A DNA stretch of 64,000 bases from Paludibacter sp. (GTDB lineage: Bacteria; Bacteroidota; Bacteroidia; Bacteroidales; Paludibacteraceae): positions 27,730-91,729 of the forward strand of contig JAYFRI010000077.1 of NCBI GenBank assembly GCA_034926015.1. The letters run 5' to 3'. A program made the translations under genes and the position numbers. Positions 9,719 through 58,889 of this stretch are shown here, one piece after another. Below the pieces are notes generated by a model. It saw only the letters and a program-made list of their open reading frames with translations. It did no database searches and was not told where the DNA came from. Numbering within the stretch: position 1 is the stretch's first letter; the number at the start of each line of letters is the position of its first letter.

Positions 9719-9747
9719 AAGTCCCCTTTAGGGGATTTAGGGGGCTT
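9719..9747 (-). repeat. solo arm of the GC-rich palindromic (REP-like) family, abutting the thrS stop codon
   Basis: Minus strand reads AAGCCCCCTAAATCCCCTAAAGGGGACTT directly after the TAG of thrS. Confidence 0.85.
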
Positions 9748-12963: not shown

Positions 12964-12971
12964 TACTTTTG
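12964..12971 (+). promoter_or_regulatory. -7 box TACTTTTG upstream of queA
   Basis: Exact TAnnTTTG. It overlaps the TTG start used by the ORF track, which argues for a downstream start. Confidence 0.45.
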
Positions 12972-13004
12972 CACAAAAATACAACAATTTTTTCGGTAAG
13001 CCAC

Positions 13005-14231
13005 GTGAACCTAACAAAAGACAACAGCCCGATTTATATCGACGAATATAATTATCCTCTTCCTGATGAGCGCATTGCTAAATATCCTCTGACAAAACGG
13101 GATGCATCTAAATTATTGGTTTATAAAAATGGCGAAATCACCGAAAGTGTGTTTTCTTCCATTTCTGACTTTTTGCCCCACAATGCGCTCCTGGTTTACA
13201 ACAACACAAGGGTGATACAAGCCCGACTTCTTTTTAAAAAAGATACAGGCGCCCATATCGAGGTTTTCTGTCTGGAACCGTTACAACCTGCCGATTATGC
13301 ACAATCGCTGGGCTCAACTACCGAATGCGTTTGGAAATGTATGATAGGCAACCTAAAAAAATGGAAAGAAGGCAAGCTGAGCAAACAAATAGAATTGGCA
13401 GGTGAGAAATGTACATTTACTGCCGAACGACTTCAGACCGAAGGCAATACCCACTGCGTAAAGTTCAGTTGGGACAATGCCGCAATTCATTTTGCCGATA
13501 TACTCGAAAATGCAGGCGAATTGCCTATTCCGCCTTATTTGCATCGCAAAACCGAGGAAAGCGATCTGACCACCTACCAAACCGTTTATTCAAAAATCAA
13601 AGGTTCGGTGGCAGCTCCCACAGCCGGATTGCACTTTACCGAAGATGTTTTTGAGGGCCTGAAACCCAAACAGATTACAATAGAAGAAGTAACGCTCCAT
13701 GTAGGCGCCGGCACTTTTCAGCCTGTAAAAACACGCGACATTGCCGAACACCACATGCATACCGAAGTGATCTCGGTTCAACGCAGCACAATAGAAAATC
13801 TATTGAAGCAATTGGGCAATATCGTCGCAGTGGGAACAACCTCGGTAAGGACTTTGGAGAGTTTGTATTATATAGGATCTAGCCCCCTAAATCCCCCAAA
13901 GGGGGACTTACATGTTCTACACGTAGATCAATGGGCTCCATATCAGACAAAAGACAAGCTTACAACACGGGAGGCTCTACAAAACATCATTGATTACTTA
14001 GAAACTAACAACCTGACTACGCTTCATGCCGAAACGCAGATAATGATAAAACCGGGCTATAAATTTCGTGTAGTGGATGGTATGATTACTAACTTTCATC
14101 AACCTAAAAGCACCTTGCTTCTGCTTGTTTCGGCTTTTGTGGGTGGCAACTGGAAACAGATTTACGACTACGCGCTTGAAAATGATTTTCGTTTTCTGAG
14201 TTACGGCGACAGTTCGTTATTGTTAAAATAA
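13005..14231 (+). CDS. queA: S-adenosylmethionine:tRNA ribosyltransferase-isomerase (start uncertain; GTG 13005 proposed)
   Basis: YNYPLPDERIAKYP...APTAGLHFT...VGTTSVRTLES...NFHQPKSTLLLLVSAF are QueA motifs. Contains an in-frame repeat insert at 13882-13909. Confidence 0.9.
   Translation: MNLTKDNSPIYIDEYNYPLPDERIAKYPLTKRDASKLLVYKNGEITESVFSSISDFLPHNALLVYNNTRVIQARLLFKKDTGAHIEVFCLEPLQPADYAQSLGSTTECVWKCMIGNLKKWKEGKLSKQIELAGEKCTFTAERLQTEGNTHCVKFSWDNAAIHFADILENAGELPIPPYLHRKTEESDLTTYQTVYSKIKGSVAAPTAGLHFTEDVFEGLKPKQITIEEVTLHVGAGTFQPVKTRDIAEHHMHTEVISVQRSTIENLLKQLGNIVAVGTTSVRTLESLYYIGSSPLNPPKGDLHVLHVDQWAPYQTKDKLTTREALQNIIDYLETNNLTTLHAETQIMIKPGYKFRVVDGMITNFHQPKSTLLLLVSAFVGGNWKQIYDYALENDFRFLSYGDSSLLLK
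13882..13909 (+). repeat. solo arm of the GC-rich palindromic family inserted in frame inside queA
   Basis: GCCCCCTAAATCCCCCAAAGGGGGACTT, translated as SPLNPPKGDL. Confidence 0.9.
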
Positions 14232-20824: not shown

Positions 20825-22342
20825 ATGGAAAAAATTATCATCCTCGATTTCGGTTCGCAAACCACACAACTTATAGGTCGCCGTTTGCGCGATTTGAATG
20901 AATACTGCGAAATTTTGCCCTACAACAAGTTTCCCGAACAAACCGACGAAATCAAAGGTGTGATTCTTTCGGGCAGCCCCTTTTCGGTATATGATCCAAC
21001 AGCCTTCAAAGCCGACTTAAGTGCCATTCGGTCTAAATTCCCGGTACTTGGTATCTGTTACGGCGCTCAATTTATGGCCTACACGTCGGGCGGAAATGTT
21101 GAAGCAGCCGGATCACGCGAGTATGGTCGTGCTAATCTGTCGTATATCGACTCAGAAGATCCGCTTTTCAAAGATATTCCTGTCGGATCGCAAATATGGA
21201 TGTCGCATGGCGATTCGATAACAAAAATTCCTGATCATTTCAAAAAAATAGCCAGCACCAACGACGTAGAGCTGGCTGCTTATAAAATAGAAGGCGAACC
21301 AACCTGGGCTGTTCAGTTTCACCCCGAAGTTTACCATACCCTGGATGGAATTGCCCTGCTCGAAAACTTTCTTAAAATTTGCGGCTGTAAACGCGACTGG
21401 TCACCAGCATCGTTTGTAGAATCGACCGTTGCTGAGCTGAAAAAGCAATTAGGCAACGACAAAGTGGTATTAGGCCTCTCGGGAGGTGTCGACTCTTCGG
21501 TTGCAGCCGTATTGCTCCACAAAGCCATTGGCAAAAACCTCACTTGCATATTTGTAGATCATGGTTTATTGCGAAAAAACGAATTCGAAAACGTAATTAA
21601 GGATTACGAACACCTCGGACTGAATGTGATAGGCGTGAATGCCAAAGAATATTTTTATAAAATGCTCGAAGGCGTTTCCGACCCGGAGAAGAAACGCAAA
21701 ATCATTGGCGCAGGCTTTATCGATGTCTTCGACAAGGAAGCCAACAAAATTGAAGATGTAAAATGGTTAGCCCAGGGCACTATTTATCCTGACATTATCG
21801 AGTCGCTCTCCATCACCGGCACTGTGATTAAATCGCACCACAATGTAGGCGGCCTTCCCGACAAAATGAAACTGAAACTTTGCGAACCGCTTCGTCTGCT
21901 TTTCAAAGATGAAGTACGGAAAGTGGGAACCGAGTTAGGCATGATGCATCATCTGATTAAACGTCAGCCGTTTCCAGGTCCGGGATTGGCTGTCCGCATC
22001 CTTGGCGACATCACTGTCGAAAAAGTGCGCATTCTACAGGAAGCCGATGACATTTTTATCAACGGTCTCCGCGAATGGAACCTGTACGACAAAGTTTGGC
22101 AGGCAGGCGTTATTTTACTGCCTGTACAATCAGTTGGCGTTATGGGCGACGAACGCACCTACGAAAATGCCGTTGCCTTACGTGCAGTTACTTCCACCGA
22201 TGCCATGACAGCCGATTGGGCGCAACTGCCTTACGAGTTTTTGGCAAAAATGTCCAACGAAATCATCAACAAGGTAAAAGGCGTCAACCGCGTGGTGTAC
22301 GATATAAGTTCGAAACCACCCGCAACTATTGAGTGGGAATAA
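20825..22342 (+). CDS. guaA: GMP synthase (glutamine-hydrolysing)
   Basis: [40 protein letters not shown]...ATIEWE C-terminus. ATG at 20825 preferred. Confidence 0.97.
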
Positions 22343-22344
22343 AG

Positions 22345-22455
22345 GCCCCCTAAATCCCCCCAAAGGGGGACTTCAAGACTAATCCTCTATAAGAAAACAT
22401 CAAATATAAAAGCTACACGCACTCAAAAGTCCCCCCTTGGGGGGATTTAGGGGGC
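22345..22455 (+). repeat. complete REPIN-like doublet between guaA and tatD
   Basis: GCCCCCTAAATCCCCCCAAAGGGGGACTT, a 53-bp spacer, then AAGTCCCCCCTTGGGGGGATTTAGGGGGC. The arms are inverted repeats with one difference. Confidence 0.9.
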
Positions 22456-22465
22456 TGGAAATTCA

Positions 22466-29770: not shown

Positions 29771-30568
29771 TTACTCCTTCAGGCGTTTCAACAATAATTC
29801 CACTCCTTTTTCTACATCATTGGTCTCCTGTAAGGCTTTGATAAATGCGCTTCCTATAATGGCTCCCGACGAGTAGCGATTCACCATATCGCGAGTCGAT
29901 TTATTGGAAATACCGAAACCTATCAACCGTGGATTCTTAAGATTCATTGCATTAATACGATTAAAGTACTCCACCTTGCTGTCGAAAGACTGCTGTGTAC
30001 CGGTAACCGCTGCCGACGACACCATATAAATGAAACCATTTGTATTGTCGTCGATTTGGCGAATACGTTCGTCGGAAGTTTCGGGGGTAATAAGGAAAAT
30101 AAATTCAAGGCCGTAACGTTCGGTGACTTCCTTGTATTCAGCCAAATAATCACTCATTGGCAAATCAGGAACAATCATTCCATCTACTCCTACCCTGCTA
30201 CACTCACGACAGAAATCCTCAAATCCGAATTGAATAATCGGATTAAGATAGCCCATCATCACCAACGGAATATGGATATGTTCGCGCACTTCGGTAAGTT
30301 GATCGAAAAGTTTACGGATACTCATTCCATTTTTCAAAGCCTGCTGACCACTGTTTTGAATTACAATCCCATCCGCCATCGGATCGGAGAAAGGAATTCC
30401 AATCTCTACCAGATCGACGCCATTGGCTTGCAAAGATTTCAAAACAGGCAAAGTATCATCAAGTTTAGGAAAACCTGCTGTAAAATATACTGAGAGGATA
30501 TTTCCTTTTTTCTGTTCAAATAATTGATTTATTCTGTTCATAATGTTTATATCTAAAGTTGACATCAA
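29771..30568 (-). CDS. trpA: tryptophan synthase alpha chain (likely start MNRINQLF at 30541)
   Basis: ILSVYFTAGFP...VDLVEIGIPFSDPMADG...GFGIS are the TrpA motifs. Confidence 0.93.
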   Translation of the reverse strand: MMSTLDINIMNRINQLFEQKKGNILSVYFTAGFPKLDDTLPVLKSLQANGVDLVEIGIPFSDPMADGIVIQNSGQQALKNGMSIRKLFDQLTEVREHIHIPLVMMGYLNPIIQFGFEDFCRECSRVGVDGMIVPDLPMSDYLAEYKEVTERYGLEFIFLITPETSDERIRQIDDNTNGFIYMVSSAAVTGTQQSFDSKVEYFNRINAMNLKNPRLIGFGISNKSTRDMVNRYSSGAIIGSAFIKALQETNDVEKGVELLLKRLKE

Positions 30569-30609: not shown

Positions 30610-31287
30610 TTATCTCAATTTCTTTAAAAAAGCACTTAATAGCTCCACTGACTTCTCTCCCGGGCGGATTTCAAATTTACTATTCAGATCGACGCCTTTA
30701 AATTTCGGATGATTGATCTTCAAAATTGCTTCAACATCATCGGCTGCAATACCACCACTCAGAAAGTAAGGTGTTTCACCCCTGTATTCATCCAACATTT
30801 CCCAGTTAAATTTCAGTCCCGAACCACCATAAGCATCAGTTTTTGTATCGAACAAAAAATAATCGCATACACCTTCGTATCGTTTTGCAGGAATGAAATT
30901 GATGGCTTCCGCTATCGGGAAAGCCTTTATTACAATCAGTCCTGCCTCTTTTAGTTGAGCACACATGCTTACCATTTCGGAGCCATGCAGCTGTACGCCA
31001 TTCAATTTGTATTTATACACTATCGTAAGAATATTTTCAAGATCTTCATTCACAAAAACCCCGATTTTTTTGATCGACGCCGGAATGGCATCCAATACTT
31101 CCGGGCTTAATGGTTCGGCATACCGGGGTGATTTTGGATAAAAAATAAATCCCATAAAATCGGGATGCAGAGCCGCTACAGCCTGTATGTTTTCGGGATA
31201 TTTCATCCCACAAATTTTGACAAGCCGCTCTTTTCTTTCCATAAAAGAATGAGTTGAAATTGTATCTGACTCTGAATTTTTCATCAC
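30610..31287 (-). CDS. trpF: phosphoribosylanthranilate isomerase (start may be 31242)
   Basis: VKICGM...DFMGFIFYPKSPRY...GVQLHG...LSGGI are the TrpF motifs. Confidence 0.9.
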   Translation of the reverse strand: MMKNSESDTISTHSFMERKERLVKICGMKYPENIQAVAALHPDFMGFIFYPKSPRYAEPLSPEVLDAIPASIKKIGVFVNEDLENILTIVYKYKLNGVQLHGSEMVSMCAQLKEAGLIVIKAFPIAEAINFIPAKRYEGVCDYFLFDTKTDAYGGSGLKFNWEMLDEYRGETPYFLSGGIAADDVEAILKINHPKFKGVDLNSKFEIRPGEKSVELLSAFLKKLR

Positions 31288-31307: not shown

Positions 31308-32093
31308 TTAAGCCGGATTTAATGAACTGATAAAATTTACCAGTACCGATGCCGGATTTTCTTCTTTCATGAAATTTTCGCCCATAAGGAAGCCCTTATA
31401 ACCTACAGCACGCAGTTCTCTGACAGTTTCAGTTTTCGAAATTCCACTTTCACTCACTTTTACAAACTGATCGGGAATAAGCGCGGCCAAATCAAACGAA
31501 GTCTGAATATTTTGTTCAAAAGTTTTAAGATTTCGGTTGTTTACGCCCAACATATCTACAAAATCGTTGGCATGCCCCAGTTCTTGTTCATTGTGCACTT
31601 CGAGTAATACTTCGAGGCCAAGTTCATGCGCTTTACTTGCCAACTCTAAGGTTTGTTTCACTGTGAGCGCTGCTGCAATCAGCAAAACAACATCGGCACC
31701 CATGGCTTTAGCTTCGTAAAGTTGATATTCATCAATCATAAAATCTTTCCGCAACACTGGACAAGCGACAAACTGACGCGCAGCCATAATATCGAGTGGC
31801 GAGCCGCCAAAAAACTCCGAATCGGTAAGGATAGAAATGCCCGAAGCACCTGCAGCGCTATATCCGGCCGCTACCTCAACAACATCAGCCTCCTCGTTGA
31901 TCCAACCCAACGAAGGTGATTTACGTTTAAACTCTGAAATAATGCCCGATTCCGAATTCAGCAAACTTTCTTTCATCGATAAACATTTTCGCCTATACAA
32001 AGGAGCATTGACGAGCGCCGATAAAGGAGCTGATATTTTGCGCGAAGCTATTTCTGAACGTTTACTTTCAATTATTTTGTCTAAAATTGTCAT
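31308..32093 (-). CDS. trpC: indole-3-glycerol phosphate synthase
   Basis: IISEFKRKSPS.G...SILTD..FFGGS...PVLRKDF...LLEVH...GVNNRNL are the TrpC motifs. Confidence 0.95.
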   Translation of the reverse strand: MTILDKIIESKRSEIASRKISAPLSALVNAPLYRRKCLSMKESLLNSESGIISEFKRKSPSLGWINEEADVVEVAAGYSAAGASGISILTDSEFFGGSPLDIMAARQFVACPVLRKDFMIDEYQLYEAKAMGADVVLLIAAALTVKQTLELASKAHELGLEVLLEVHNEQELGHANDFVDMLGVNNRNLKTFEQNIQTSFDLAALIPDQFVKVSESGISKTETVRELRAVGYKGFLMGENFMKEENPASVLVNFISSLNPA

Positions 32094-32167: not shown

Positions 32168-33163
32168 TTATTTATAAATCTCCACAAATTTTTCAAATGC
32201 TTTTTTGGCCGAACCATTGGCCAATGCATCAGCAGCCTCGGCCTTGCACTGTTCCAACGCTTTCATCGGGCAACGCGTCTGAATGGCAAAAGCAGCATTA
32301 ACAACCACAGCATTTCTTTGCGCTTCTGTAGCCCTATTATCAAGCACATTGACAAATATCTTTGCTGCCTCGTCCACAGTGTTTCCACCCCACAATTCCT
32401 CTTGTCGAATTGTTTTAAAACCAAGTTGCTCGGGCGTAAAAACAAACTCACCGGCATTGTTTGTAATCTTACAAACATCCGTAAGCGAGATTTCATCGTA
32501 GCCATCGAGCGAATGTACAATGCTGTAATTTACGCCCAAATTTTGATAAATATAGGTATAAAGTCGCATCATTTTCAGGTTGTACACACCAAGACATTGA
32601 TAATGTGGTCGAACCGGACTAATCAGTGGTCCAAGTACATTAAAAAAAGTACGGACACCCAGGTTTTTACGCACAGGAGCTACATTTTTCATGGCCGGAT
32701 TACAAAATGGAGCATGCAAATAAGCAAAACCCGCTTCGTCGAGCGAGCGTTTCACAACATTAATATCAGTTGTGAATTTTGCTCCGAAATACTCTAGCAC
32801 ATTCGACGATCCACTCACCGAAGTGGCTCCGTAATTTCCATGTTTTGCAACAGTGTAACCTGCACCGGCCACCGTAAAGCAACTGCAGGTTGAAATATTG
32901 AAAGTATTTTTGCCATCACCACCCGTTCCTACAATGTCAAGCGGGTCAAATTCCGACAAATCCATCGGTATAGCCATCTCCAGCAGTGCATCGCGAAAAC
33001 CGATCACCTCATTTAATTCGATGCTTCGCATAAGAAAGACTGAAATAAAAGCAGCTATTTCAGATTCGTTGTATTTTCCGGCAGCTATATTGGTCATCAC
33101 CGCAGCTGCCTCATTGCGCGTAAGCGACTGGTGATTAAAAAGTTGATTCAGTATTTGTTTCAT
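32168..33163 (-). CDS. trpD: anthranilate phosphoribosyltransferase
   Basis: DIVGTGGDGKNTFNIST...KHGN is the TrpD signature. Confidence 0.95.
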   Translation of the reverse strand: MKQILNQLFNHQSLTRNEAAAVMTNIAAGKYNESEIAAFISVFLMRSIELNEVIGFRDALLEMAIPMDLSEFDPLDIVGTGGDGKNTFNISTCSCFTVAGAGYTVAKHGNYGATSVSGSSNVLEYFGAKFTTDINVVKRSLDEAGFAYLHAPFCNPAMKNVAPVRKNLGVRTFFNVLGPLISPVRPHYQCLGVYNLKMMRLYTYIYQNLGVNYSIVHSLDGYDEISLTDVCKITNNAGEFVFTPEQLGFKTIRQEELWGGNTVDEAAKIFVNVLDNRATEAQRNAVVVNAAFAIQTRCPMKALEQCKAEAADALANGSAKKAFEKFVEIYK

Positions 33164-33166
33164 AAA

Positions 33167-33300
33167 GCCTCCTCCCGACCTCCCCCAAAGGGGGAGGAGA
33201 AACGGGTATAATATGATTTGAGTTCAAAATAAAATATTTCAAATTTATAAAAACTTTGGAAATACGCCCTATTCCCTTCCTTTGGAAAAGTTCGGGGAGG
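33167..33300 (-). repeat. degenerate REPIN-like doublet at the trpG|trpD junction
   Basis: Minus strand reads CCTCCCCGAACTTTTCCAAAGGAAGGGAAT (inside the trpG 3' end), then a spacer, then TCTCCTCCCCCTTTGGGGGAGGTCGGGAGGAGGC ending 3 nt before the trpD ATG. Confidence 0.65.
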
Positions 33301-33859
33301 ATAACCAGTTTTTCAGCATTTGCTCACCATCGGGCGTCAATACTGATTCGGGATGGAACTGAACGCCACGCACATCGTATTCTTTGTGCGCCAAAGCCAT
33401 AATCATTCCTTCTTCATCCACGGCTGTAATTGTAAGGCATTCGGGCAAAGTTGTTTTTTCGGTAGCCCACGAATGGTAACGTCCCACTTCGAGTCGCTTT
33501 GGCAAACCATCGAACAACACATCTTTTTCTAACACATCCACCATTGAACTGATGCCGTGGTGTACTTCCGAAAGATTGATAAGTGTTCCGCCAAAGGCTT
33601 CGGCTATGGCCTGCTCGCCCAAACATACGCCAAGTATACTCTTCGAAGGCGCATAAGTCCGGATAACGTCGAGCAGAATGCCTGACTCCGAAGGAATTCC
33701 GGGTCCTGGCGAAAGAATTATTTTATCGAAACGGGCAATGTCTTCGAGCGCTATTTTATCGTTACGATGCACTTCCACATCGTCATATCCCAACTTTTTA
33801 ACTGCATGTACCAAATTATAGGTAAATGAGTCATAGTTATCAAAAACTAATATTTTCAT
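33269..33859 (-). CDS. trpG: anthranilate synthase component II (glutamine amidotransferase)
   Basis: MKILVFDNYDSFTYNL...GVCLGEQ...VQFHPES is the class I GATase triad context. Confidence 0.95.
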   Translation of the reverse strand: MKILVFDNYDSFTYNLVHAVKKLGYDDVEVHRNDKIALEDIARFDKIILSPGPGIPSESGILLDVIRTYAPSKSILGVCLGEQAIAEAFGGTLINLSEVHHGISSMVDVLEKDVLFDGLPKRLEVGRYHSWATEKTTLPECLTITAVDEEGMIMALAHKEYDVRGVQFHPESVLTPDGEQMLKNWLSSPNFSKGRE

Positions 33860-33871
33860 GTTCTATCTCCA

Positions 33872-33988
33872 GCCCCCTAAATCCCCCGAAGGGGGACTTA
33901 TAAGTGCATTTTTTTTATATTAATAATAATTCATGAGTAAACTTCCCTATTCAACTCTTTAAGTCCCCCTTCGGGGGATTTAGGGGGC
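33872..33988 (-). repeat. complete REPIN-like doublet at the trpE|trpG junction (perfect 28-bp inverted arms)
   Basis: GCCCCCTAAATCCCCCGAAGGGGGACTT at 33872-33899 and its exact reverse complement at 33961-33988. 61-bp AT-rich spacer. Confidence 0.92.
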
Positions 33989-35456
33989 TTTGTATTGGGG
34001 AAGCTGAAATTACTGCCTTTTTCAAGGCTGCCAGTTTATTATTTACTTCCTGCAATTCGCTCTCTTCGTCCGATTTGGCAACGACGCCGGCGCCGGCCTG
34101 ATAATAAAGCGTATTGTTTTTGCTTACAAACGAACGAATCGTAATGGCTTGGTTGAAACTTCCATCGAAACCAATATACCCGAGACATCCTCCATAAGGA
34201 CCACGGTCGTGGGGTTCAATCTGATCAATCAGCTGCATGGCCTTTATTTTTGGAGCTCCCGAAAGCGTTCCAGCGGGGAAAGTATCTGCAAAAAGCTTTA
34301 TGATTTTCGTCTCCGGCTTCATTTTTCCGCTTACACTCGACACCAAATGTAACACATGCGAATAGTACTGTACTTCGCGAAACACTTCCACTTCCACCTG
34401 ATCGGTATTACGACTGAGATCGTTGCGGGCCAAATCTACCAACATCACATGTTCGGCATTTTCCTTTTTATCGTTCCGCAGTTTTTCGGCCAATTGAAAA
34501 TCTTTTTCGTCGTCGCCGGTGCGTCTGAAAGTTCCGGCAATGGGTTTGATATAAGCTTTCTGCTTTTTTACATCGACTACTAAATGCGCTTCGGGAGAAG
34601 AACCAAAAATACGGAAATCGCCAAAATTGAAGTAAAAAAGATAAGGCGAAGGATTCACCGAACGTAAGGTACGATACAGCATAAAATCATCGCCTTTGTA
34701 TTGCTGATAAAAACGACGCGAAAGCACAATCTGAAAAACATTTCCTTTCTGACACTCTTGCTTTCCACGTGTCACCATGCGTTTAAAGTCTTCGTCAGAA
34801 ATATCGCATTTTTCAGCGCCTACTGCTTCGAATTGGTAAGTTGCCACATTGTTGTTCTCCAGAATACGTTCGATGCTTTGAATGGCCGAGCTTTCACCTT
34901 CGAGAAGATTTTCAATGATTGTCAATTCGTTATTAAAATGATTAATGGCTATTATGTATTTAAAAAAAACATAATGCAATCCCGGCATATCGCCCGGAAC
35001 AGTGTTTCGTGCCGAAAGCTTCACATCTTCGAAATACTGCACCGATTCATATGAAGTATAACCGAAAAGCCCGTTGATATTGAGTTTGCTTTCGTTTTCG
35101 GCAATTTCAAATTCCTTCAGAAACACATCGAAACGATCGGCCACAGTAAGTGGGTCGACCACCTGCGTTTCCACCTGAACGCCATTGGGATATTCTTCAA
35201 CGATCAGAAAATTATTCACAGATATACCGCCAATAGGGCTGAAACCAATATAGGAATAACTATTCTCTACTCCATGATAGTCCGAACTTTCGAGCAACAC
35301 TGAATTGGTGTACAAATCGCGCACTTTCAGATAAATACCTACCGGAGTTTGTAAATCGGCAAGCATTGTTTTTGATTTAACAAAAAGTCGGCCCCCTAAC
35401 CCCCTAAAGGGGGAATTAAGGTTAGCATCGTCTGATATTTTTTTTTCTTTATTCAT
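33951..35456 (-). CDS. trpE: anthranilate synthase component I (both termini overlap repeat arms; start 35456 or 35366)
   Basis: LLESSDYH...PSPYLFYF...GTLSGAPKIKAMQLI...RGPYGGCLGY are the TrpE motifs. Confidence 0.93.
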   Translation of the reverse strand: MNKEKKISDDANLNSPFRGLGGRLFVKSKTMLADLQTPVGIYLKVRDLYTNSVLLESSDYHGVENSYSYIGFSPIGGISVNNFLIVEEYPNGVQVETQVVDPLTVADRFDVFLKEFEIAENESKLNINGLFGYTSYESVQYFEDVKLSARNTVPGDMPGLHYVFFKYIIAINHFNNELTIIENLLEGESSAIQSIERILENNNVATYQFEAVGAEKCDISDEDFKRMVTRGKQECQKGNVFQIVLSRRFYQQYKGDDFMLYRTLRSVNPSPYLFYFNFGDFRIFGSSPEAHLVVDVKKQKAYIKPIAGTFRRTGDDEKDFQLAEKLRNDKKENAEHVMLVDLARNDLSRNTDQVEVEVFREVQYYSHVLHLVSSVSGKMKPETKIIKLFADTFPAGTLSGAPKIKAMQLIDQIEPHDRGPYGGCLGYIGFDGSFNQAITIRSFVSKNNTLYYQAGAGVVAKSDEESELQEVNNKLAALKKAVISASPIQSPLNPPKGDLKS

Positions 35457-35524
35457 AATGCTCTAAATATCTTGTTTTAATAATCAATAGTAATATTTCA
35501 TTCCCCTTCTGGGGATTAGGGGGC
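35391..35524 (-). repeat. REPIN-like doublet at the trpB|trpE junction
   Basis: Minus strand reads GCCCCCTAATCCCCAGAAGGGGAATGAA (its TAA is the trpB stop), then a spacer holding the trpE ATG, then CTTAATTCCCCCTTTAGGGGGTTAGGGGGC. Confidence 0.85.
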
Positions 35525-36757
35525 AGTTTTAAAATGTTTTACATAGGTGTCCATATCTTTATCTCCTCTGCCCGAAACCGTAACTACAACAATATCATCT
35601 GGTTTGAAGTTTTGTTTTTCTTTTTTCAAAATAGCCAGCGCATGTGCCGATTCGATAGCGGGAATAATACCCTCAAGTCTTGTCAGTTCAAAAGCAGCTT
35701 CGAGCGCCTCATCATCGTTCACAGGATATACCTTAGTGCGACCGGCTCGTGCCAGAAAAGCGTGAACTGGCCCAATGCCCGGGTAATCCAAACCCGCCGA
35801 AATAGAATAAGGTTCGGTAATCTGTCCATCCGCATCCTGCATCAACAAGGTTTTGGCTCCGTGAATAATTCCCACACTTCCGAGCGTAATTGTTGCTGCT
35901 GTTTCGGTAGTTTCAACGCCCATTCCGCCGGCTTCGGCCGAAATTATGTTCACTCGCTCATCATTAAGGTAATGATAATAAGTTCCCATAGCATTACTAC
36001 CACCGCCCACACAGGCAATCAAATGATCGGGATAATCGCGCCCTGTTTGTTCATTGAGTTGCTCCTTTATCTCTTCGCTGATCACCGACTGAAAAAATCC
36101 CACCATATCGGGATATGGATGTGGTCCAACGGTAGAACCAATGATGTAAAATGAATCGGGATTAGAGCACCAATACCGAATGGCTTCGTTGGTGGCATCT
36201 TTCAATGTCATATTTCCGCTCGTTACCGGCTCTACTGTTGCTCCGAGCATGCGCATTTTCTGAACGTTCAGGAACTGACGTTCCACATCCGTTTTACCCA
36301 TGAACACAATGCATTCAAGTCCCATCAATGCACAAGCTGTAGCTGTGGCCACTCCATGTTGTCCGGCGCCCGTTTCGGCAATGATACGTGTTTTGCCCAT
36401 GCGCTTAGCCAACAGAATTTGCCCCAGAGCATTGTTTATTTTATGTGCGCCTGTATGGTTCAGGTCTTCGCGCTTAAGGTAAATGTTTGTTCCATAGCAC
36501 GCCGACAAACGTTTGGCAAAATACAATGGCGAAGGGCGGCCCACATAGTTTTTGAGCAAGTCGTAGTATTCTGCTCTGAAAGAATCATCTTCTTTAATAG
36601 CAAAATAAGCTTCTTTCAGTCGCTCCACTGTTCCGTGCAAAATTTCGGGGATATAAGCTCCGCCAAATTCGCCGTAATAACCGGAAGAATCGATTCCCCA
36701 ACCCCCTGAAGGGGGAGTTAAGTTAGTTTCGTCTCCAAAATCATTTGTATTATTCAT
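35516..36757 (-). CDS. trpB: tryptophan synthase beta chain
   Basis: GYYGEFGGAYIPE...HTGAHKINN...GGGSNAMG are TrpB motifs. The N-terminal ~20 aa are encoded by a repeat element. Confidence 0.95.
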   Translation of the reverse strand: MNNTNDFGDETNLTPPSGGWGIDSSGYYGEFGGAYIPEILHGTVERLKEAYFAIKEDDSFRAEYYDLLKNYVGRPSPLYFAKRLSACYGTNIYLKREDLNHTGAHKINNALGQILLAKRMGKTRIIAETGAGQHGVATATACALMGLECIVFMGKTDVERQFLNVQKMRMLGATVEPVTSGNMTLKDATNEAIRYWCSNPDSFYIIGSTVGPHPYPDMVGFFQSVISEEIKEQLNEQTGRDYPDHLIACVGGGSNAMGTYYHYLNDERVNIISAEAGGMGVETTETAATITLGSVGIIHGAKTLLMQDADGQITEPYSISAGLDYPGIGPVHAFLARAGRTKVYPVNDDEALEAAFELTRLEGIIPAIESAHALAILKKEKQNFKPDDIVVVTVSGRGDKDMDTYVKHFKTAP

Positions 36758-36822
36758 ATCTAATAAAAGTCATTAAATTTACCAATTCTCTTTTTGTTCT
36801 CTCCCCTTTAGGGGTTGGGGGT
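36695..36822 (-). repeat. REPIN-like doublet between the trp attenuator and the conserved trpB core
   Basis: Minus strand reads TACCCCCAACCCCTAAAGGGGAGAGA, then a spacer holding the trpB ATG, then TTAACTCCCCCTTCAGGGGGTTGGGGA. Confidence 0.8.
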
Positions 36823-36828
36823 ATTTAT

Positions 36829-36865
36829 AAAAAAAGGCTTATCGTGAGTTACGACAAGCCTTTTT
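36829..36865 (-). terminator. trp attenuator terminator
   Basis: Minus strand reads AAGGCTTGTCGT-AACTC-ACGATAAGCCTT followed by T7. Lies between the WWW leader ORF and trpB. Confidence 0.8.
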
Positions 36866-36909
36866 ATAAATCATTATATTTTTTCTGACATACATACAGG
36901 AAGTTCCGC

Positions 36910-36972
36910 TCACGATTGGGTTATTCGTAAGTGCCACCACCAAAATTTATTAATTGTCAGAGCTGTTTTCAT
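36910..36972 (-). CDS. trpL: trp operon leader peptide (MKTALTINKFWWWHLRITQS)
   Basis: 20-codon ORF with three consecutive TGG codons (36934-36942). Followed by alternative pairings and a terminator. Confidence 0.8.
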   Translation of the reverse strand: MKTALTINKFWWWHLRITQS

Positions 36973-37110
36973 TTCTGTTTGTTTTACGGGGACAAAGATG
37001 ACAAATTATTTTTATTTACGCAAGAAAAATATCAAATTTTTTATTTTCTAATTTTCAAGCTACTGGTACAGATGGGAAAAAATGTAAGTGAATACTCGTC
37101 TGTGCTATTG

Positions 37111-58827: not shown

Positions 58828-58853
58828 GTTCCCCCTTTAGGGGGTTAGGGGGC
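58828..58853 (+). repeat. solo arm (second-arm type) of the GC-rich palindromic family upstream of the GH13 gene
   Basis: GTTCCCCCTTTAGGGGGTTAGGGGGC followed by TGGAG, as in the trpE|trpG and guaA|tatD copies. Confidence 0.8.
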
Positions 58854-58889
58854 TGGAGTTAAGGGGTAGATATAATAAATCAAAAACAG

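Follow-up and report, generated by a model that had tools for sequence, protein, structure and literature searches.

An intergenic palindromic repeat as the likely start of TrpB and TrpE in a Paludibacter trp operon

Can a repeat that lies between two genes also provide the start codon and the N-terminus of the enzyme downstream? This question is raised by the tryptophan operon in a 64 kb stretch of DNA (the window) from a metagenome-assembled genome of Paludibacter sp. The operon lies on the minus strand in the order leader-trpB-trpE-trpG-trpD-trpC-trpF-trpA, and inverted-repeat doublets (arm 1, spacer, arm 2) occupy four of its junctions: leader/trpB, trpB/trpE, trpE/trpG and trpG/trpD, the last one degenerate (Table 1). 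An earlier note on this DNA had proposed that the repeat element itself supplies the start codons and first residues of TrpB and TrpE. We compared the window with 80 loci fetched from different species; the related loci total 1.33 Mb. The native junction has been replaced, the upstream open reading frame (ORF) ends in arm 1, and the downstream ORF is kept in frame from an ATG in the spacer. From this comparison we consider it likely that TrpB and TrpE both owe their initiation codon and first ~20 residues to the repeat.

The element at the leader/trpB and trpB/trpE junctions

The trpB ATG (36757..36755) sits in the spacer of doublet 1 and is the sole in-frame ATG, GTG or TTG upstream of the conserved TrpB core. 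Translation from this codon gives MNNTNDFGDETNLTPPSGGWGIDSSGYYGEFGG, in which residues 1-21 are derived from the element and arm 2 is read as TPPSGGWG. Codons 18-21 (GGWG, 36706..36695) occupy the place of the ancestral codons 1-4 (MDYS) in relatives, and the ancestral N-terminus MDYSIDNNGYYGEFGG (MDYSIDNN) is found in L002-L005 and at many other loci. The relative L001 shares both the doublet and the peptide at this junction. Solved TrpB structures start 1-6 residues ahead of the GYYGEFGG motif. Residue 20 of the extension is a Trp encoded by TGG at 36700-36698, where the consensus TTAGGGG would read as a TAG stop in the trpB frame. Doublet 1 has TTGGGG instead, so that a tryptophan-biosynthesis enzyme here has a Trp codon within its N-terminal tail, and arm 1 of the doublet bears the complementary CAA.

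The trpE ATG (35456..35454) likewise sits in a spacer, that of doublet 2, whose arm 1 contains the TAA stop codon of trpB (35518..35516) so that TrpB ends in TAP. Translation from this ATG gives MNKEKKISDDANLNSPFRGLGGRLFVKSKTMLADLQTPV, with arm 2 read as SPFRGLGG and thus in another frame than in TrpB (PPSGGWG). The last three bases of arm 2, GGC (35393..35391), stand at the exact site of the ancestral trpE ATG, and the next in-frame ATG is that of M31 (35366-35364). Started at the spacer ATG the protein has 501 aa (P0001), and in the NCBI annotation, which starts at M31, it has 471 aa (P0002). The ancestral TrpE start reads MKLFVxSKK (e.g. MKLFVKSK), and the proteins of element-free relatives are 467 aa long and end in VASGK. 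In L001, which has 97% TrpE identity, there is no element at trpB/trpE; a 70-nt native spacer follows a TrpB that ends in KHFKK, and TrpE begins with ATG AAA CTA TAC GTT (MKLYVKSKT). Relative to L001, the entire spacer together with the stop codon and the ATG has been replaced in the window. At the other end of the protein, the C-terminal tail SPLNPPKGDLKS, directly followed by the stop codon, is encoded by arm 1 of doublet 3. A sequence search of the N-terminal 147 residues of TrpE against solved structures gave no matches, and AlphaFold2 run on TrpE with a 42-sequence alignment gave an unusable model (predicted local distance difference test score of 31), from which nothing was concluded on the first β-strand.

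Re-reading the ORFs returned the coordinates and both N-terminal peptides as the earlier note had described them, including the position of both ATGs within spacers and the different frames in which arm 2 is read. Its view that the extensions are lineage-specific also held when orthologs were compared. Element-free relatives have shorter and different N-termini, orthologs without the repeat do not carry the same N-terminal peptides, and distant Bacteroidales are without both arms and extensions. Extensions that contain an arm were found for TrpE and for TrpB in ~30-36 species each among the fetched loci.

The leaders of the two genes had been noted as homologous in DNA, and both fit the consensus of a family of which we aligned 52 copies. 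The conserved element is ~125 nt long and consists of arm 1, an AT-rich spacer, an ATG leader and arm 2. Arm 1 has the form CCCC-TAA-CCCC-TAAA-GGGG with TAA stops in two of three frames, the AT-rich spacer contains the conserved ATTACTAYTGATTATT, and a conserved ATG opens a leader of ~12 codons (..ATATACAAAACGAWACTAACTTCAAYT). Arm 2 has the form CCCC-TTTA-GGGG-TTR-GGGG. Its consensus contains TAG in two of three frames, and the one naturally open frame, ..TCC CCT TTA GGG GTT RGG GGT (SPLGV[GR]G), is shared with the leader ATG. The full consensus runs nnACCCCTAACCCCTAAAGGGGAAnTAAnnATTACTACTGATTATTTAAA..TATGAATAA..ATATACAAAACGAAACTAACTTnAATTCCCCTTTAGGGGnTnGGGGT with the ATG in a conserved column, and its leader part reads ...TATGAATAA...ATATACAAAACGAWACTAACTTnAAYT-CCCCTTTAGGGG-TTRGGGG.

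The 52 aligned copies stand in front of different genes. The tail made of leader and arm 2 is fused to TrpB, E, G, C, F and A, to a FolB-like protein, an aminotransferase and others, and typically adds ~20 residues of the form M..N.QNDTN.NSPLGVGG. In the trp-centred loci, fusion to an ORF of ≥100 codons was seen for 63/86 doublets. The order is arm 1 then arm 2 in all 38 pairs typed on both arms, with the reverse order found in none. The stop codon of the upstream gene falls in arm 1 in 29/59 doublets and in the spacer in 10 more. Because the upstream stop so often lies within the element and the leader ATG is fused to the gene downstream, the element can be read as a complete junction. Judged from its sequence it is a portable gene junction, in which a stop is followed by an AT-rich spacer, then by an ATG leader and last by a translated arm.

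Table 1. Coordinates of the trp operon, the copies of the element and the DUF559 genes. Positions are those of the window unless a locus is named; stems are predictions.
Feature	Position	Strand	Remarks
Tryptophan leader RNA (attenuator)	36853..36989	-	Rfam RF01692 Bacteroid-trp, 48.6 bits, E 6.7e-4
Leader peptide ORF	36972..36910	-	MKTALTINKFWWWHLRITQS, then stop; intact WWW peptide
Terminator hairpin and T run	36868..36828	-	inverted repeat; intact
Doublet 1 (leader/trpB)	36695..36822	-	arm 1 36822..36799, AT-rich spacer 36798..36718, arm 2 36717..36695; inverted repeat 36799-36820 and 36696-36717; arm-arm stem -41.5 kcal/mol, z -4.8, ATG in loop
trpB	36757..35516	-	413 aa
Doublet 2 (trpB/trpE)	35391..35524	-	arm 1 35524..35503, spacer 35502..35413, arm 2 35412..35391; stem -46.9 kcal/mol, z -6.2, ATG in loop
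trpE	35456..33951	-	501 aa from the spacer ATG
Doublet 3 (trpE/trpG)	33871..33989	-	second arm subtype; arms perfect 30/30, 33989..33960 and 33900..33871; stem -62.2 kcal/mol, z -8.7
trpG	33859..33269	-	
Degenerate older doublet (trpG/trpD)	33170..33295	-	arm 2 33195..33174, ends 10 nt before the kept trpD ATG 33163
trpD	33163..32168	-	
trpC	32093..31308	-	
trpF	31287..30610	-	
trpA	30568..29771	-	
Further doublet	22346..22460	+	fills the whole intergenic region; upstream stop 22341-22343, downstream ATG 22467; stem -54.8 kcal/mol
Single arm in the queA ORF (12969..14231)	13880..13910	+	in frame; encodes SSPLNPPKGDL
DUF559, trpB/trpE	L017:9179-9674		between the two trp genes
DUF559, trpB/trpE	L030:8026-8497		between the two trp genes
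DUF559, trpB/trpE	L044:8077-8608		between the two trp genes
DUF559, trpE/trpG	L204:1501-1896/L205		arm 1-DUF559-leader-arm 2
PurL ORF with DUF559 unit	L041:564-4862		arm 1-DUF559-arm 2 in frame and two whole in-frame doublets
DUF559	L202:1501-1878		P. propionicigenes WB4-like contig; between doublet parts; downstream leader-arm 2 fused to BT1 transporter
DUF559	L203:1501-1863		between doublet parts; downstream leader-arm 2 fused to carbamoyltransferase-like gene
DUF559	L143		arms on flanks
DUF559	L180		arms on flanks

Start codons, reading frame and the arm-arm stem

The reading frame was examined at trpB, trpE and trpG loci where an arm lies upstream within 110 nt of the core and the stretch between the two is free of in-frame ATGs. 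The frame of the gene was open through the arm up to the spacer ATG in 74/74 such gene-locus cases, against 2/148 for the other two frames. Where the native ATG is kept after the arm, an open frame from the spacer ATG was seen in 0/4 cases. With stringent arm detection, starts were found only upstream of the arm in 24/24 trpB, 22/22 trpG and 24/29 trpE loci.

A second line of evidence comes from the stops in arm 2. When the complement of arm 1 was threaded into arm 2, 11 in-frame stops appeared across 41 fused doublets. The real arm 2 escapes the TAG by TTTA>TTCA, which gives CAG, or by TAG>TGG, CGG or AGG, while the partner arm 1 stays consensus. This loss of TAG is restricted to the frame that is read.

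These observations bear on the possibility that the start sites are misannotated and the arms are an untranslated 5′ leader, with TrpE starting at M31 (35366) and TrpB at a non-canonical codon such as ATC 36694. This is a usual caveat for N-terminal repeats; surveys have judged many repetitive extragenic palindromic (REP) sequences at annotated N-termini to be non-coding owing to downstream starts (PMC3733652). For TrpE the 471-aa NCBI annotation and the A at -3 of M31, which is a favourable nucleotide (PMC6847099), speak for it. Against it stand the open gene frame and the frame-restricted removal of TAG, and also the absence of any ATG, GTG or TTG between the arm and the invariant core in TrpB (24/24 loci) and TrpG (22/22 loci). 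A consistent near-cognate start for TrpB is lacking as well, because the codon after arm 2 varies between species (ATC, ATT, GTC, GCA, GTC-TCC).

For TrpE, the codons upstream of M31 appear to be under coding constraint. The seven codons between arm 2 and M31 vary most at the third, less at the first and least at the second codon position, as in coding sequence. The position-wise variability of codons -7..-1 for first, second and third positions is 6.6/5.0/11.4 where the ATG has been lost, compared with 5.5/3.5/8.6 where it is still present. In L058 the place of M31 is taken by Leu, and canonical starts are found only as spacer ATGs. Taken over both genes, the sequence comparisons largely exclude misannotation, and we consider an untranslated leader very improbable. 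A downstream start as the sole start of TrpE, as called by NCBI, is unlikely, and some added initiation at M31 would be compatible with the data.

Such dual initiation, from the spacer ATG and from M31, would give a short TrpE without the first ~9 ancestral residues. M31 is conserved, carries an A at -3, stands 25 nt past arm 2 and has a predicted accessibility similar to that of the spacer ATG. Yet the constraint on the preceding codons indicates that the long form matters, and the internal Met is also present in relatives that keep the ancestral ATG and is thus simply a conserved residue. We regard use of both starts as unlikely.

Intermediate states were also seen. In L012, L031, L005/6, L033, L068 and L070 an arm lies directly upstream of a kept ATG and the ORF of the spacer is closed, and in L022 and L035 the native Met codon has turned into TTG or TTA. 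The presence and absence of doublets is a mosaic even among the closest relatives, which differ by ~6% in nucleotides. Frequent homologous recombination in the operon is suggested by the sequences and may spread junction alleles; recent insertion is the other candidate source of the mosaic. In window positions 32670-37042, the identity per 100 nt to L001-L004 swings between 81 and 100%, though the TrpE proteins are 97-98% identical.

Most of the comparison sequences are metagenome-assembled and repeats can mislead assemblers, so the fusions might be misassemblies; otherwise the N-terminal peptides might simply be ancestral. Arm-free relatives, on the other hand, have shorter, mutually conserved N-termini, and arms and extensions are missing together in the distant Bacteroidales. 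The leader, moreover, is shared by at least 10 protein families unrelated to each other. The same fusions were found in the complete chromosomes L003 and L004 and in the 4.1-Mb contig L038, and the WB4-like isolate contig L202 shares the architecture. Ancestral peptides or misassembly are for these reasons hardly credible explanations.

Several points weigh against initiation at the spacer ATGs. The nominal p of 2e-57 for the frame contrast is inflated, as the 74 cases are phylogenetically related and their independence is overstated, though the contrast itself is complete. The stop-avoidance test is partly circular, since fused copies were defined by their open frame. NCBI starts TrpE at M31, a conserved residue that has an A-rich stretch upstream in addition to the A at -3. 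Predicted accessibility does not tell the TrpE spacer ATG (0.49) from M31 (0.37), and the unpaired probability around the competing ATGs, 0.37-0.55, does not discriminate between starts. Ribosomes that start in the spacer would have to open a stem predicted at -41 to -47 kcal/mol. The element replaces DNA and is not a clean insertion, and neither a target-site duplication nor transposition chemistry is demonstrable. Finally, genes for DUF559 proteins, described below, still have an ATG of their own behind arm 2 and strictly do not need the leader.

Weighing both sides, we still favour initiation at the spacer ATG, and the following scheme may account for it. At a gene junction the element has taken the place of the native intergenic DNA, including the stop codon of the upstream gene and the start codon of the downstream one, and the upstream protein ends in or just after arm 1. 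Ribosomes would begin at the ATG in the spacer, translate arm 2 and enter the old gene at codon 2-5. In Bacteroidia, ribosomes ignore Shine-Dalgarno sequences, and initiation depends on local structure and on the nucleotides close by (PMC6847099). A GC clamp next to the native ATG would therefore be unfavourable, and an ATG in an AT-rich loop of ~80 nt would be a plausible landing site. With the spacer ATG in use, the native ATG would become dispensable.

The earlier note had also suggested that a long arm-arm stem could place both initiation regions in a loop and act as a point of translational control. Carried further, the stem could be a regulatory device (translation control, an RNase barrier or coupling of the trp genes) and the coding fusion secondary. 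For each of the four window doublets the prediction is a long stem (-41.5 to -62.2 kcal/mol, z -4.8 to -8.7) that holds the ATG in its loop. The arms match better within one element than between elements (83% vs. 75%, 0/5000 permutations), and with the upstream stop in arm 1, the stem would be opened by ribosomes that terminate there. Terminal inverted repeats of subfamilies should, however, show correlated arms just as much, and covariation was minimal because the G and C runs never vary: RNAalifold on the 52 doublets predicted the arm-arm pairing with one covarying pair. Furthermore, the changes in arm 2 of fused copies break the pairing to remove stops, which suggests that translation outranks pairing. 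A search of the doublets against Rfam at an E-value threshold gave only sub-threshold matches to miRNA-like hairpins, taken as chance. A primarily regulatory stem seems rather unlikely as the explanation.

Other copies of the element and the DUF559 cassettes

Chance alone would give 0.03 occurrences of the arm pattern in the window, where 19 were counted, and the inverted-repeat arms are 22-30 nt long, 77-100% complementary and separated by spacers of 59-90 nt. In doublet 3 the spacer ORF is broken just as the earlier note had read it: the ATG (33934..33932) soon meets a TAA (33922..33920) in the sequence ATG AAT TAT TAT TAA. The frame continues to TGG AGA TAG AAC ATG, the last codon being the start of trpG, which retains its own ATG (33859). 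L001 has no element at trpE/trpG; here an 86-nt ancestral spacer follows a TrpE that ends in VASGK. The degenerate doublet at trpG/trpD is also present in L001, and its arm 1 encodes the C-terminus of TrpG, ..SSPNFSKGRE followed by the stop (33269-33295). An arm upstream of a kept trpD ATG was seen in 21 loci, with one fusion only. The doublet at 22346..22460 is without a spacer ATG and without fusion and ends 6 nt before the ATG of a TatD-like gene.

The single arm in queA falls in a stretch of ~54 residues absent from solved QueA structures, and its peptide SSPLNPPKGDL is identical to that of the C-terminal tail of TrpE. Two more single arms on the plus strand were observed, one at 58831-58855, ~35 nt upstream of a gene start, and one at 9723-9745, which comes after a terminator-like hairpin. 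Several arm 2 ends among the other window copies read GGGGGCTGGAR.

The hairpin core has 277 occurrences in the 1.33 Mb of related loci, compared with 10 in reversed-sequence controls, and 12 in the window; it is confined to one Paludibacter clade and scattered Bacteroidales. Of the 277 cores, 103 fall within the opening 45 codons of an ORF of ≥120 aa, 15 within the closing 25 codons and 11 at internal positions. In a metagenome sample drawn by the arm 1 sequence alone, ~15/62 doublet orientations were fused (to MurG, MurD, Maf, a transketolase subunit and transporters), and the remainder were plain intergenic copies, often without an ATG.

The arms also multiply in tandem. Copies of arm 1 follow each other 32-33 nt apart, 33 nt being 11 codons, in L026 (7046-7125), L022 (9820-9865), L017 (9139-9185) and L037. 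On the side of arm 2, translation runs through two or three successive copies, e.g. TPPSGGRGASSSHLGVGGSSVPLQGLGV, as seen for the TrpE N-termini of L009, L010, L026, L032 and L036. At L030:7822-7992, upstream of a DUF559 gene, an arm 1 is interrupted by ~170 nt of unrelated inserted sequence (ACCCCTAACC before and CTAAAGGGG after the insertion), and arms may be targets of insertion themselves.

Upstream of doublet 1 the operon has a leader peptide and a terminator that match the Bacteroid-trp leader RNA (RF01692). As the gathering score of this family is 49, the leader slips under a default Rfam search, and at the gathering threshold only a single tRNA was matched in the window. The leader is an ordinary attenuator outside the repeat element, which begins right after its terminator. 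A sigma-70 promoter scan found sites no commoner than in shuffled sequence, with a model that is not built for Bacteroidetes promoters.

Small genes of the DUF559 family were found within the same architecture. Their ORFs match PF04480 (E 1.1e-32, 112.6 bits vs. a cut-off of 20.6) with a readable D..E-x-D-G..H motif, and they are embedded in arms and leader at 9/9 distinct DNA sites examined (Table 1). Three of these nine sites were chosen by a protein search independent of the arms, and the L143 and L180 contigs were retrieved by the arm pattern. The window itself, over its 64 kb, has no DUF559 gene. At trpB/trpE the junction thus exists in three states: native (L001), doublet only (the window) and doublet plus DUF559 (L017, L030 and L044).

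In L041 the DUF559 unit lies inside PurL (FGAM synthase), whose ORF of 1432 aa carries it between the AIRS_C and PurM_N-like domains; the two in-frame doublets are translated as ..SPQNPPQGDFKNQVSDGAESKASPAGRFGGA.. and ..SPLNPPQGDLKSHVSENFINDANLKASPVGRFGGA.. The best 120 DUF559 homologues include 94 with an N-terminal extension of at least 12 residues, nearly all made of leader and arm 2 and of the form M..N.QNDTN.NSPLGVRG.N-MFYGALP. Many homologues end in ..TPNP or ..PLTPKGE followed by the stop, endings that correspond to translated arm 1. The DUF559 gene of L030 and that of L202 have direct repeats of leader and arm 2 on their flanks, and recombination between such repeats would leave a solo doublet fused to the downstream gene. 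The 125-aa DUF559 protein of P. propionicigenes WB4 (P0187; L202:1501-1878) is named "leucyl-tRNA synthetase" in NCBI and UniRef, an evident misannotation.

These arrangements suggest that endonuclease cassettes of the type arm-flanked DUF559 (Vsr-like PD-(D/E)XK) probably gave rise to the doublets as their non-autonomous or solo derivatives, and we infer that the leader was originally the initiation region of the DUF559 gene itself. More tentatively, the doublets may represent, in non-autonomous or solo form, a class of mobile elements not described before that has DUF559 as sole gene and is built as a portable junction; we offer this as a possibility on which we would not yet rely. If true, this design would let the element enter operon junctions and even the interior of ORFs (PurL, QueA) without inactivating host genes, and with the native start codon gone the element would be hard to lose.

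Comparison with known repeats

Literature searches with the arm sequences, the arm-encoded peptides, Paludibacter repeats, Bacteroidetes transposable elements of the miniature inverted-repeat type (MITEs) or REPINs, and DUF559 mobility gave no description of the element in the papers found. The Rickettsia palindromic elements (RPEs) are similar in being short palindromic mobile repeats that lie in frame in genes and add conserved peptides (PMC3733652; PMC10969869). N-termini decorated by RPE-1 have been reported to be expressed in vivo, and in-frame REPs are also known in Opitutus terrae and other species (PMC3733652, PMC10969869). In-frame insertion that adds a conserved peptide is seen here as well, in the QueA arm, in the PurL of L041 and in the tails on at least 10 protein families, a likeness at the level of function that carries no claim of family membership. 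The RPEs have no evident sequence relation to the element, whose host is a member of the Bacteroidota. Unlike the RPEs, the element has its own conserved ATG, stands mostly at gene boundaries where it replaces stop and start codons, and is linked to DUF559 genes.

REPs, bacterial interspersed mosaic elements and REPINs share with the element GC-rich palindromic units of 20-30 nt that occur as singlets, tandem clusters and inverted doublets folding into a long hairpin, and they are enriched between co-directional genes. The GTAG or CGTC tag of REP and REPIN is absent from the 52-copy alignment, where the arm ends read (C)TGCCCCC.. or AGCCCCC../..GGGGGCA(G) or ..GGGGGCT. No gene for a REP-associated tyrosine transposase was seen in the window and in fragments of other genomes, with no whole-genome search made; the arm-flanked gene is consistently DUF559. 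In contrast to REP and REPIN, the element is not confined to extragenic DNA (103+15+11 of the 277 cores lie in ORFs), has a conserved spacer with an ATG leader and is often translated. Published N-terminal REPs were mostly judged to be non-coding (PMC3733652). The earlier note had called the supply of an N-terminus no ordinary REP property. This appears to stand for the built-in conserved ATG and needs qualifying for translation as such, since translated palindromic repeats have precedents (PMC3733652, PMC10969869).

The case has several consequences. Gene callers disagree on the starts, as for TrpE with 471 or 501 aa, and repeat-derived tails of ~20 residues are present on hundreds of Paludibacter and Bacteroidales proteins. 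A selfish repeat has taken over both punctuation marks of neighbouring genes, repeatedly and in core biosynthetic enzymes, and the comparative signatures point to real use of the new start. As loss of the element would also mean loss of the start codon, this provides a route to fixation. The element might also be seen as a naturally standardised initiation module (AT-rich loop and GC clamp) in front of many unrelated genes and as a possible expression part. DUF559 is a widespread domain without an assigned function, and the link to it offers a testable hypothesis for what these endonucleases do.

Bacterial MITEs with ORFs (enterobacterial RU-1/2/3 or ERIC, Correia/NEMIS and Nezha) resemble the element in their length of 100-170 nt, terminal inverted repeats, many copies and lack of a transposase, and for some of the MITE copies fusion to the N- or C-terminus of an annotated ORF is known (PMC2759123; PMC10969869). 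Those fusions are sporadic and many involve small hypothetical ORFs, whereas fusion is the dominant state of the present element in a core biosynthetic operon; a conserved built-in start codon with comparative evidence of its use is a further difference. Filled and empty sites (window vs. L001) differ by the whole 70- or 86-nt spacer and the stop and start codons, with no target-site duplication defined. In the sequences compared, no parent insertion sequence was found for the element. Units of arm 1-DUF559-arm 2 were seen (L204/L205 and the PurL of L041), other copies have full doublets on both sides, and DUF559 is not a known transposase.

The DUF559 cassettes are most reminiscent of free-standing homing endonuclease genes and their remnants, in analogy to solo long terminal repeats: a small endonuclease gene is flanked by repeats and the junction occurs in three states. 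DUF559 differs in not being an established homing endonuclease family. Set against these known systems, three features of the element appear to be new: the conserved built-in start codon with its leader, the systematic overwriting of stop and start codons at the junctions of a core operon in Bacteroidota, and the association with DUF559.

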